Source of the DNA: a plasmid
Direction: 5' to 3' (one strand)
Length of the DNA: 3,083 bases
NCBI RefSeq assembly: GCF_054482595.1
Contig: NZ_JBTHVH010000002.1
The stretch's first letter is position 1. Every line of letters starts with the position of its first letter. Shown here piece after piece: positions 1 through 3,083 of this stretch. Both the position numbers and the translations under genes were made by a program. Below the pieces are notes generated by a model. That model was given only the letters and a program-made list of their open reading frames with translations, had not been told where the DNA came from and did no database searches.

Positions 1-426
1 CTCTTCGCTCTCCGTCTGATTTCGTTTGCAATTCTGTTATTTACTCTAATGGTGATAACCTTAGTCCTCTGCCGTACTTCTGAACCACTACGCTTATTTT
101 TAGCCATCGCAATGACTCTCCATTTTGCACGTTCTGGGTGTCGGGGCCTGCCCTGACAGGAGGTATTCTCATGCAAGCGAATGTATTCGCGGTATGACGA
201 ATACACATCCTGTCCCGTTTTTCGCTACAACTTTTCGACAAAAATAAAATACCGCGTCGTAACCTGGTATTTCTGATACAAAAAAACGATGCTTCATTCA
301 ATATTATTTACACAGATTTTAAAAGTTATTTCTTGTTATTTAATAAATAACGCAAAATTAATTGATGCTTTTGTTCTTTGTCGTTTGTTGATTATTGAGT
401 AAATAAAGATTGTGTTTTCCTGATTA

Positions 427-432
427 TATAAT
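427..432 (+). promoter_or_regulatory. Candidate -10 hexamer (TATAAT) of a ColE1-type RNA II primer promoter
   Basis: Perfect TATAAT at 427-432 in an AT-rich tract. No good -35 was found (TAAAGA at 17-bp spacing matches 3 of 6). The implied start near 439 puts GATCAAGA (481-488) about 43 nt into the transcript, as in ColE1/pBR322 RNA II. Confidence 0.35.
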
Positions 433-438
433 CCATTG

Positions 439-1010
439 CCTGTTAGTGATACGGAGTGCATCAGAGAACAGGAAGCAGGAGATCAAGATAGTAGCATGTG
501 CATAAAATACAAACCCGTGAGTTATTGATATCGCGTTTATATATTAAAAATATAACTTAACATTGCTCTTAATATTTATTTTGCCCTCGCAATGGGTGCA
601 TTAATCCCCGTGCAGCGCTCCGCCAGCTGCTGACGGCCTCGACATGCAACCGTCAATGCGATAAAAGATCGGGGTGCGTTTCCGGCAACAACTAACCATA
701 GGGATGGTTTGCGTGCCGACAAACGCCGGAAACGCGCCTCAAATCCACCAAGCCGCCACGGTTCCGGCAGCGCCTTGAGCGCAACCGGAAACCGACTGGG
801 GAGAACCCCAGACCCCCACCGCTGCAACATCATCGGTCTGCGACCGCCTACCAACCGAGCGACTGCCTGTACCGTGCAAACGGGCTTTGCAGGGGCTGGC
901 GCGGTTCCTGGCGACCTGAAAGCCCCTGGTTAGGGGTATCGGCGCGCCTGGCCTCCTGAAACCCTCTGTAAGCGTTTTTCGCGCCTTCCATGCCCTGGGG
1001 GGCATTTAAA
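439..1010 (+). ncRNA. ColE1-family pre-primer RNA II (ends approximate)
   Basis: ORF-free GC-rich stretch of about 570 nt between the -10 at 427-432 and the G6 run (997-1002) plus A-rich transition (TTTAAAACCC, about 1005-1014). This is the pBR322 geometry (RNA II about 555 nt; G6 then GGAAAAACGCC at the RNA/DNA switch). The six-frame ORFs here are Arg/Pro-rich with no ribosome-binding site. Confidence 0.5.
441..549 (-). ncRNA. Predicted antisense RNA I (copy-number control); position inferred from the ColE1 paradigm only
   Basis: In ColE1 replicons RNA I is antisense to the first ~110 nt of RNA II. I could not identify its promoter or its three stem-loops with confidence, so the coordinates are placed by analogy, not by sequence match. 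Confidence 0.2.
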
Positions 1011-1015
1011 ACCCG
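997..1015 (+). other. ColE1-type origin core: G6 run and A-rich RNA-to-DNA transition
   Basis: CCCTGGGGGGCATTTAAAACCC resembles pBR322 TCAGGGGGGCGGAGCCTATGGAAAAACGCC, the G-run and A-run that flank the RNase H processing site. Comparison is from memory of pBR322. Confidence 0.45.
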
Positions 1016-1059
1016 TTTCGTGCGTCTGAGAGCTTCTGAGCGCGTTTGAAGGGCTATCT

Positions 1060-1215
1060 GGCGACTCATCCCTGAAAGAAAAACAACGGGATCACCGACA
1101 ACATGCGAGAGATGACACCGCTCGCCGCAGCCCTAGCGACCGAACGTAGTGAGCGAGTGGGCGAGGAAGCGGAAGAGAACTGGAAGGTACATTTGGCTCT
1201 TACGCACTTCCGTAA
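1060..1215 (+). other. Ori-distal conserved segment with primosome assembly site (n'-pas / ssi-like)
   Basis: TCATCCCTGA...GATGACACCGCTCGCCGCAGCC...GTGAGCGAG...GAGGAAGCGGAAGAG...CTCTTACGCAC parallels pBR322/pUC TTATCCCCTGA...GATACCGCTCGCCGCAGCC...GTGAGCGAGGAAGCGGAAGAG...CTCCTTACGCAT. The GAAGCGG heptamer (1166-1172) is, as I remember it, the conserved PriA/n' recognition motif. Confidence 0.6.
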
Positions 1216-1278
1216 AGAACTAAGAAGAGGGTATCGCGGAAGCCGCGAAAAATGGGGATCCAATTTTCAGATCATGTG

Positions 1279-1369
1279 AGACGGTCTATCAGACGTCATC
1301 AGACCGTCTATCAAAAAACACGTTGATTTTGATAGACCGCGAATCTAAAGTTGAATCTTGTCTATCAAA
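1279..1369. repeat. Iteron/operator cluster, consensus AGAC(C/G)GTCTATCA, three direct copies and one inverted copy
   Basis: AGACGGTCTATCA at 1279-1291; AGACCGTCTATCA at 1301-1313; GTCTATCA at 1362-1369; inverted TGATAGACCG at 1331-1340; a degenerate copy AGACGTCATCA at 1291-1301. The first two copies are 22 bp apart and each contains the 9-bp palindrome AGAC-N-GTCT. The cluster sits immediately upstream of the winged-helix gene. Confidence 0.65.
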
Positions 1370-1382
1370 AAAAGGTTTAATT

Positions 1383-1913
1383 ATGATAAACGGTCGATAC
1401 AAAACTAACCCTTTTTTGGAAGGTATGATAGTGCCCGTCAAGGGTAAACAAGTCAGACTTTCCCGTCTAGGTCGTGATGAAAACATACTGGTTAATCAGA
1501 ACACGGGAGAGGTTCAAGGCACCCATGTAACAACATATAAACGGGTTGATGGTGAGCAGTTTGTAAAACTATTCACTGCAAATATCGCGTTAACCTTTGA
1601 TTTGTCAGCTCAAGGAATAAAAGCATTTAACGTTTTGATGTGGGCAATACAAAAGCAGTCAGTATCAAAAGACGAAGTTTATTTAGATACTCACACAAGA
1701 GAGGAGTTTCTTGCTATTTATAATGATAAAGATAAACCAATTAAATTAAGTCAGCCAACATTTGCTAGAGGATTAGCTGAACTTACAAAAGCTCAAATTA
1801 TAGCTAAAACCATACGTCAAGGAGTGTATTGGATAAATCCAAATTTTGCATTCAACGGTGATAGAATCGCGTTTACAACTCTTATTGAAAGGCAAGGTAA
1901 TAGTGAAAAATAA
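1383..1913 (+). CDS. Small winged-helix DNA-binding protein, putative iteron-binding replication/maintenance protein (RepL-like; assignment tentative)
   Basis: Same frame as track ORF 1323-1913. ATG 1383 has AAGG 7 nt upstream; alternative starts are ATG 1425 and GTG 1431 (GGAAGG 7 nt upstream). Stop TAA at 1911-1913. The C-terminus has a helix-turn-helix plus beta-wing signature (QPTFARGLAELTKAQIIAKTIRQGVYWINPNFAFNGDR) and the N-half has a GEV...FVK pattern I recall from RepL. Direct repeats upstream fit an autoregulated iteron-binding protein. Confidence 0.65.
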   Translation: MINGRYKTNPFLEGMIVPVKGKQVRLSRLGRDENILVNQNTGEVQGTHVTTYKRVDGEQFVKLFTANIALTFDLSAQGIKAFNVLMWAIQKQSVSKDEVYLDTHTREEFLAIYNDKDKPIKLSQPTFARGLAELTKAQIIAKTIRQGVYWINPNFAFNGDRIAFTTLIERQGNSEK

Positions 1914-1926
1914 CAGGGTAAAAACA

Positions 1927-2715
1927 ATGAGAAAAAAGAATATGTTTCCGCCAGGATCTTTGAGTATAAAATTAAATAAACCTTTAACTAAATATGAAAT
2001 AATTGAGATATTGTCAGAATACCTCTCGATGTTAGAAATAACTTTTAGGATAAAAGAATTCCGGCTTTTCTCTTATTTGGAATGCGTGCTTAATGGAGAA
2101 AAGCAGGCTATATACCATAAAGATAATAACACAATCGTGTCTGGATTTTTACTTGATTCAATGAGGAGTACAAACAACAGAAAAATCAATAAGATACTGT
2201 TAGGCGGTGATGATTTTGATGCCATGGAAAAAATCGATGACATGTTAAATATGAAAGCAGAATCCAATCCGTATGAATATTTTAAGAGTTTTTTATCACT
2301 AGTTCCTGCTAATATTGCATATGATCTCATCAGGAAAACTGAAGAGTTAATCGAACTTGAGAGAGTGGAAAGGATAAAAGAAAAAATCGAATTGCGTGAA
2401 AAAAAGCTAGAAAAAGATAAAAACATATTAAAGGTTATTTATAACAATAAGATTGCTGAGTATTCATGTACTTTTGATTATTTTAGATCTGTATATTTGT
2501 CTAGCTCTGGTTTTTTATCTTTAGAAAAACAAAAGGCTAAATATTTTCTTGCGGAAGGGTTGGGTTCACTATTGAAGGATTATGTTGGTAAAAGGTTGGT
2601 AAGATTATCAATTAAAGGCGATGATGGTAAAGTCTCCATAGTCGAAATATATGATGAAAATGGTAGATTTTTATTTAAGACAAAACCTCTAAATAAATCA
2701 CAGAGTAATCTTTAA
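1927..2715 (+). CDS. Hypothetical protein (262 aa), AT-rich, with a highly charged E/K-rich central helix; function unknown
   Basis: ATG 1927 lies 14 nt after the upstream stop, with AGGG 8-9 nt upstream. The track ORF start at 1846 would overlap the upstream gene out of frame and is unlikely. Stop TAA at 2713-2715. Residues ~134-169 (nt 2326-2433, DLIRKTEELIELERVERIKEKIELREKKLEKDKN) look like a charged helix or coiled coil. No Walker, HEPN, PD-(D/E)xK or polymerase motifs seen by eye. Confidence 0.75.
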   Translation: MRKKNMFPPGSLSIKLNKPLTKYEIIEILSEYLSMLEITFRIKEFRLFSYLECVLNGEKQAIYHKDNNTIVSGFLLDSMRSTNNRKINKILLGGDDFDAMEKIDDMLNMKAESNPYEYFKSFLSLVPANIAYDLIRKTEELIELERVERIKEKIELREKKLEKDKNILKVIYNNKIAEYSCTFDYFRSVYLSSSGFLSLEKQKAKYFLAEGLGSLLKDYVGKRLVRLSIKGDDGKVSIVEIYDENGRFLFKTKPLNKSQSNL

Positions 2716-2723
2716 TATGCTTC

Positions 2724-2756
2724 AGCCGATATACCAAATAAGACAGGATATCGGCT
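2724..2756. terminator. Intergenic hairpin between convergent genes (candidate bidirectional terminator)
   Basis: Perfect 9-bp inverted repeat AGCCGATAT (2724-2732) / ATATCGGCT (2748-2756) with a 15-nt loop, in the 46-bp gap between the stops at 2715 (+) and 2762 (-). The loop is long and there is no clean U-tract, so it is a weak intrinsic terminator. Confidence 0.3.
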
Positions 2757-2761
2757 AATAT

Positions 2762-3083
2762 TTATCTGTCGAATAAGTTAGAGCCTGGGTATTTATTTTT
2801 GTGCTCTCTTTTTATTATTTTTATTTCCTCTATTATTAAATCCATCTCTTTATAAATATTTGAAATTTTCTGTGTTATCTCTTTCATTTCAGTACAGAGT
2901 GAAATTATTTTATGCATCACCTCTAGGTACTCTTTATCATTCGGACTCATCCCTTTATCAAATAATTTTTTCTGCATCCGACCAAGTTGTATTAATTCAT
3001 CTAGATATCTAGAAGGCACGCGCTGTTTTATTTCATTATTTAAACTTACTGTCCTTATATACTCTGAGATTGTCAGCCCTTCG
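2762..3083 (-). CDS. Hypothetical protein, 5'-partial (frame open to the window edge), AT-rich; function unknown
   Basis: Track ORF 2762-3019 begins at a GTG with no ribosome-binding site. The same frame has no stop for 21 more codons to position 3083 (…EGLTISEYIRTVSLNNEIKQR-VPSRYLDEL…), so the true start probably lies beyond the window. Stop TAA (plus-strand TTA 2762-2764). Convergent with the 1927-2715 gene. Confidence 0.5.
   Translation of the reverse strand, partial: EGLTISEYIRTVSLNNEIKQRVPSRYLDELIQLGRMQKKLFDKGMSPNDKEYLEVMHKIISLCTEMKEITQKISNIYKEMDLIIEEIKIIKREHKNKYPGSNLFDR

Follow-up and report, generated by a model that had tools for sequence, protein, structure and literature searches.

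A hairpin with asymmetric terminator features between the convergent replication and mobilization modules of a small Escherichia coli plasmid

Several classes of stem-loops have been described that mark the 3' ends of transcripts in E. coli. Rho-dependent transcripts end just past stable stem-loops without U-rich tails, which guard the RNA against PNPase and RNase II and have rut sites immediately downstream (Dar and Sorek 2018, PMC6061677). Moreover, many convergent genes of E. coli have common stem-loops that do not look like intrinsic terminators (Wang et al. 2022, bioRxiv 10.1101/2022.10.23.513370). Such stem-loops pause the RNA polymerases, and head-on as well as trailing collisions end transcription (Wang et al. 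2022). Here, we compare these systems with a hairpin that is located between two convergent genes of a cryptic plasmid.

The window analysed is a stretch of 3,083 nucleotides (positions 1-3083) and comprises a whole circular plasmid. A megablast search matched it to pLH10-b-1-j (NZ_CP100540.1) with 99.9% identity and 100% coverage, the window being rotated by 1325 bases against this record. pLH10-b-1-j is a circular plasmid of 3083 bp from E. coli LH10-b-1 and has the replicon type Col(MG828). In window coordinates, the RefSeq annotation contains three genes, which are repL, a gene for a hypothetical protein that we call the orphan protein, and mobA. According to PGAP, the orphan gene uses a GTG start codon at 1903 (1903-2715, + strand, 270 aa). 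MobA has 142 aa and is encoded on the - strand by 2762-3083 and 1-107 across the ends of the window; as the linear window cuts mobA, the list of open reading frames shows a fragment of 85 aa only. The repL and orphan genes probably form one operon. We infer promoters for both transcription units, and promoter-like matches in a scan of the window were fewer than in shuffled sequences. The features that matter for the junction are the following:

1383 to 1913, + strand: repL, a replication/maintenance gene encoding 176 aa (stop codon at 1911-1913; Pfam RepL match)
1927 to 2715, + strand: gene for the orphan protein of 262 aa, with the conserved ATG at 1927 at which the homologues start
2709 to 2723, - strand: tail GAAGCAUAUUAAAGA, without a U-tract, overlapping the stop codon of the orphan gene
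2716 to 2761, no strand: spacer of 46 bp between the converging stop codons (TAA at 2713-2715 on the + strand and the complement of TAA at 2762-2764 for the - strand)
2724 to 2732, no strand: left arm of the hairpin, AGCCGATAT, forming nine perfect pairs with 2748-2756
2733 to 2747, no strand: apical part of the hairpin with the bulged A2733, the pairing of CC 2734-2735 with GG 2746-2747 and the loop AAATAAGACA (10 nt)
2748 to 2756, no strand: right arm of the hairpin, ATATCGGCT, pairing with 2724-2732
2757 to 2771, + strand: tail AAUAUUUAUCUGUCG, a modest U-rich tract overlapping the stop codon of mobA
2762 to 3083, - strand: 3' part of mobA (NikA-like relaxosome accessory protein), continuing across the circular junction
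1 to 107, - strand: 5' part of mobA, with the start codon at 105-107

The original prediction of a convergent gene pair that is 46 bp apart and separated by a single hairpin was exact in its coordinates, and the common 9-bp stem indeed consists of nine perfect pairs. The hairpin occupies 33 of the 46 intergenic bases and is 8 nt away from the stop codon of the orphan gene and 5 nt from that of mobA. For the 46-mer, the minimum free energy of the RNA is -14.3 kcal/mol on the + strand (z -4.35) and -17.2 kcal/mol on the - strand (z -3.98), the latter helped by G-U pairs, and none of 200 dinucleotide shuffles folded as well as the real sequence. The DNA of the 46-mer folds with -8.4 kcal/mol (z -4.15). 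Among the local 46-nt folds of the AT-rich half of the plasmid, the hairpin ranks first on the - strand and third on the + strand, after the fold at 1419 and the iterons. Perfect inverted repeats of at least 9 bp with a loop of 3-20 nt occur at three places in the plasmid, namely at the hairpin and twice in the iterons; the expectation from shuffles is 0.28 per 1.8-kb AT-rich half and about 0.007 per given 46-bp spacer. A covariance-model search against Rfam revealed nothing at or near 2716-2761 and three weak matches elsewhere, all below the gathering scores, which excludes a known RNA family. A promoter-like match (TCGACA-16-TATCCT, 2745-2772, - strand) overlaps the right arm and points into the antisense strand of the orphan gene, and an equivalent match (TTAATA-18-TATCAT) is present at 1331-1360 of the related locus L003. 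The match over the hairpin was taken as chance because such matches are fewer than in the shuffles of the scan itself.

On the + strand, the hairpin resembles the Rho-independent terminators of E. coli in that a stem-loop directly follows the stop codon and is itself followed by a modestly U-rich tail. The tails were scored with the decaying U-tract score according to the d'Aubenton-Carafa/TransTermHP formula. The score of the + strand tail is -2.27 right after GGCU and -3.66 after GGCUAA, that is, with the flanking UU/AA closing the stem, and the latter value places it in the top 8% of the local 15-mers. The tail is only moderately U-rich, and only with the UU/AA closing pairs, which an inserted C disrupts in this plasmid. 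In contrast to Rho-independent terminators, the tail AAUAUUUAUCU is interrupted, the stem of 9+2 pairs contains only 4-6 G-C pairs, the loop comprises 10-15 nt, as compared to the canonical short loop of 3-8 nt, and the - strand lacks a U-tract. A simple consensus scan found no terminator in the window because of the loop of 10-15 nt. The 15-bp version of the relatives (L003) passes the same scan, being flagged on the + strand only, with 15 pairs, five G-C pairs counted and a 7-nt loop.

On the - strand, the hairpin rather resembles the protective stem-loops of Rho-dependent transcripts (Dar and Sorek 2018, PMC6061677), because it is stable (-17.2 kcal/mol), has no U tail and is followed by C-rich and G-poor RNA. 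Past the hairpin, C exceeds G in the RNA of both strands (18% C versus 10-12% G overall; 18% versus 10% on the - strand), and the - strand RNA contains 27% C and 8% G at 75-150 nt past the hairpin. This composition of the downstream antisense RNA would be compatible with the loading of Rho, the C excess being modest. For the present stem-loop, dependence on Rho and trimming by exonucleases are predictions.

The junction also resembles the collision-type terminators (Wang et al. 2022, and Ju et al. 2019 as cited therein), which combine a convergent gene pair, one stem-loop and a short spacer. A stem-loop is indeed present in the spacer of convergent genes, and at least one strand does not have the look of a canonical intrinsic terminator. 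Unlike the described examples, which are chromosomal, the hairpin is located on a multicopy plasmid, and collisions would be frequent only if both genes were transcribed strongly enough.

Taken together, the hairpin most likely marks the 3' ends of both transcripts. By a small margin over even odds, we favour the reading that it is a transcript 3'-end element common to the two converging units, which would act differently on each strand. For the repL-orf262 operon on the + strand, the stem-loop followed by AAUAUUUAUCU would serve as a weak Rho-independent terminator. For mobA on the - strand, the more stable stem-loop without a U-tract would most likely be a pause site and a barrier to 3' exonucleases. 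RNA polymerases passing the hairpin on this strand could be stopped by Rho on the untranslated antisense RNA just downstream, in which C exceeds G, or, alternatively, by head-on collision with polymerases coming from the opposite gene. The mobA RNA would then be trimmed as far as the hairpin. In sum, antisense transcription of the replication and mobilization modules would be limited on a 3-kb circle. All of these consequences for transcription we infer from the features of the DNA.

Co-occurrence of the hairpin and the orphan gene was confined to a small group of E. coli plasmids, which are 3.0-3.9 kb in size. The junction was taken from 25 related loci in complete plasmids, draft assemblies, Logan assemblies and metagenomes, and the hairpin is kept in all 25, in five sequence variants. 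The commonest variant (14 loci), TTAGCCGATATATCA-AATAAGA-TGATATATCGGCTAA, forms a perfect 15-bp stem with a 7-nt loop and folds with -20.8 and -21.7 kcal/mol (z -7.0 and -8.8). Relative to this form, the apical part is degenerate in the window: the window version (four loci) and a sister version (five loci) have an extra C at the base and changes in the four pairs at the apex. In the basal 9 bp, the only difference between the variants is a C-to-U change, by which a G-U pair is kept on the + strand. Across the five variants, 88% of the cells pair and one double change is present (U-A to C-G, columns 26/38); the covariation is not significant, as 306 of 500 shuffles score as high and five variants give no power. 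Evidence from covariation is thus negligible and says nothing either way. Over 38 nt of the hairpin region, 6 differences from the commonest variant were counted manually on the alignment (about 84% identity), as compared to about 91% identity for the 2 kb around it; therefore, there is no sign of a constraint that is stronger than the background, and sequence conservation would not support a claim of purifying selection. A scan of metagenomes with flanking anchors yielded one contig, which is identical to the commonest variant. A scan of genome contigs with AGCCGATAT-N10-20-ATATCGGCT gave more than 120 unrelated matches from many phyla, all of which were rejected as chance. The orphan gene of the commonest relatives ends with a TAG located 11 nt earlier, which gives a spacer of 57 bp instead of 46 (window 2701-2715 versus L003 1281-1292). 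The window lineage reads four more codons towards the hairpin than these relatives.

The window and the abundant Col(MG828) plasmids of 2.3-2.6 kb have only the mob module in common, which extends from 2771 through the circular junction to about 1207. The homology covers mobA, the oriT-like region and a GC-rich stretch. The block of iterons, repL, orf and hairpin is a separate exchanged module with mosaic boundaries at 2771 and about 1207, of which the right-hand one (2771) is located within mobA, 10 nt from its 3' end. The GC-rich stretch (about 590-1280; 57-70% GC in 46-nt windows) contains many stable hairpins and direct repeats and no annotated gene in this record; relatives annotate a 59-aa hypothetical ORF in it. 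A part of the stretch is present with 80-95% identity in hundreds of enterobacterial plasmids. There are 951 plasmid records matching the window, most of them typed as mobilizable.

Sister plasmids, which have mobA in common with the window but contain other rep modules, carry hairpins at the equivalent repL/mobA junction that are unrelated in sequence to the one in the window. One of these elements, AAATAAGGTCTTTTTAAAAAGACCTTATTT (L008, L157, L159 and L162), is self-complementary and has U-rich tails on both strands (scores -3.97 and -3.96); in the sister plasmid pB771_2310 (L008), it is a symmetric A-tract/stem/U-tract terminator at the junction. In L007 and L158, the junction contains GCCCGTCAA...TTGGCGGGT followed by TTTTAATATT, and the tail of the sister-plasmid hairpin GCCCGTCAA...TTGGCGGGTTTTAATATT scores -4.45. 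Overall, the tail scores of the sister-plasmid elements range from -3.96 to -4.45. The presence of three unrelated hairpin sequences at one convergent junction provides the strongest argument that a hairpin as a structure is called for at this place. Where more distantly related orphan genes are not opposed to mobA (L132-L134), the 3' hairpin is weak or absent, and one distant homologue forms a 47-bp convergent junction with an unrelated gene of 150 aa.

The positional replacement also speaks against the best surviving rival, according to which the hairpin is a functionless relic, a palindrome that descends from a recent common ancestor and is now drifting. Such drift would agree with a shallow phylogeny, since there are only five variants, all in plasmids that are about 90% identical, and with a hairpin that is no better conserved than its flanks and whose apical part has decayed in the window lineage. 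However, a perfect 15-bp palindrome exactly in the spacer is far from chance (z -7 to -8.8; 0.16 matches expected at <=3 mismatches), and a relic accounts poorly for three independent hairpins at the same junction in plasmids that share mobA. We therefore regard this explanation as unlikely.

It is more unlikely still that the hairpin is a true bidirectional intrinsic terminator, which would by itself release RNA polymerase efficiently on both strands. Its position between the convergent stop codons and its stability on both strands are as expected for such a terminator, and the sister plasmid pB771_2310 provides a symmetric example at the same junction. However, the - strand tail GAAGCAUAUUAAAGA scores -1.57 (V2, -1.6 to -1.8), a value poorer than the median for 15-mers of the AT-rich half, 89% of which score at least as well. 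Furthermore, the A-tract 5' of the stem that would mirror the U-tract and serve as the U-tract of the opposite strand is absent, and the scan matched the version of the relatives on the + strand only. Thus, of the bidirectional terminator that had been suggested, the location, as expected of a transcript-end element, and the stability on both strands stand, and the symmetric intrinsic terminator does not.

The palindrome could also act at the level of the DNA, as a site for a dimeric protein (RepL, the orphan protein or MobA), as a cruciform or as a joint at which the rep and mob modules recombined. In the relatives, an AT-rich centre of 7 bp is flanked by perfect arms of 15 bp, the single-stranded DNA folds with -14 kcal/mol (z -8.1), and the breakpoint of the module homology at 2771 is only 10-15 bp away. 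Nevertheless, no further half-site was found anywhere in the plasmid, and the inner four positions of the arms are asymmetric in the window lineage, which would weaken a dimer site. No XerCD/dif-like core was detected either: a search for a cer/dif-like site with 11-bp arms and a spacer of 6-8 bp gave 0 matches at <=3 mismatches to the XerC/XerD consensus. Moreover, candidates for the DNA sites of the plasmid are located elsewhere, at 163-216 (an oriT-type hairpin) and 1279-1395 (iterons), and the unrelated palindromes of the sister plasmids fit a structural role that is independent of the sequence better. We consider a DNA-level function to be rather improbable.

The hairpin at 163-216 is stable (-19.5 kcal/mol; arms GTATTCG...CGAATAC, then ACATCCTGTCCCG) and is located upstream of mobA and divergent from it. 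Its region resembles the nick regions of IncP/IncI-type oriT sites (ATCCTG core), and we take it to be a putative oriT. A blastn search for a link to IncI1 plasmids gave matches in the same family of small plasmids only. The region at 1279-1395, just upstream of repL, is likely the origin or operator; it contains iteron-like repeats in direct and inverted orientation (GTCTATCAAAA / AGACSGTCTATCA), which overlap a promoter-like match at 1358-1387.

REP elements, for which dual roles as terminators and stabilisers have been proposed, are likewise palindromes in the 3' UTR between convergent genes, but unlike these many dispersed chromosomal copies the plasmid hairpin is not repetitive, and a REP element is excluded because none of 5,426 E. 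coli genomes has a chromosomal match, the sequence being present only on these plasmids.

It had also been considered that the two genes act as a toxin/immunity or defence pair. Searches for gene families do not support this idea: the - strand gene encodes a MobA/NikA-like protein and the + strand gene a repL-coupled orphan without a family match. MobA scores 91.4 bits with the NCBIfam model NF041264 (equivalog cut-off 80), has a NikA-like match in Pfam and is a ribbon-helix-helix relaxosome accessory protein. It reaches 21.2 bits with a RelB-antitoxin model (cut-off 50), and this weak match reflects the common ribbon-helix-helix motif. The PLSDB typing of the plasmid is non-mobilizable, with no relaxase gene. 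The orphan protein of 262 aa has no match in Pfam, NCBIfam, PADLOC or PHROG, and its family comprises five clusters among 5.8 billion proteins. A profile search yielded 18 relatives among 1.84 billion representatives, none of which is informative on function, and the AlphaFold2 model is unusable (mean pLDDT 37.9). Wherever the upstream flank is present, on plasmids and chromosomal islands, the orphan gene directly follows a RepL-like gene. The exception is L154 (orphan gene at 1924-2754), in which the gene upstream has no family match; L155 lacks upstream sequence. The coupling to RepL suggests that the orphan protein may have an accessory role in replication or maintenance. Copies after a RepL-like gene are also present in L156 (3001-3792) and L006 (6001-6792). 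The islands L156 and L154 contain an AlpA-like gene in addition, and the copy in L006 is a pseudogene beside an H-NS-like ORF. The convergent genes are a replication module and a mobilization module.

A bolder proposal, to which we give little credence, is that the palindrome is a natural plasmid-borne collision-dependent bidirectional terminator or, alternatively, a DNA site recognised by the orphan protein, and thus more than a passive end of transcripts. Both versions predict a palindrome that keeps the replication and mobilization modules insulated from each other and moves together with the rep-orf module in exchanges, because the homology breaks at 2771.

The hairpin is an ordinary 3'-end element of a well-known kind with asymmetric terminator features, undocumented as such. 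Beyond annotation, the finding matters little; it marks the likely 3' ends in widespread cryptic E. coli plasmids of the Col(MG828) type. Within the window, the repL-coupled orphan protein is more interesting than the hairpin. If tested, the 46-bp element could become a compact natural model in which intrinsic termination is compared with termination assisted by Rho or by collisions. Moreover, it illustrates that a single hairpin between convergent genes need not be functionally symmetric, as it may have a U-tail on one strand and none on the other.
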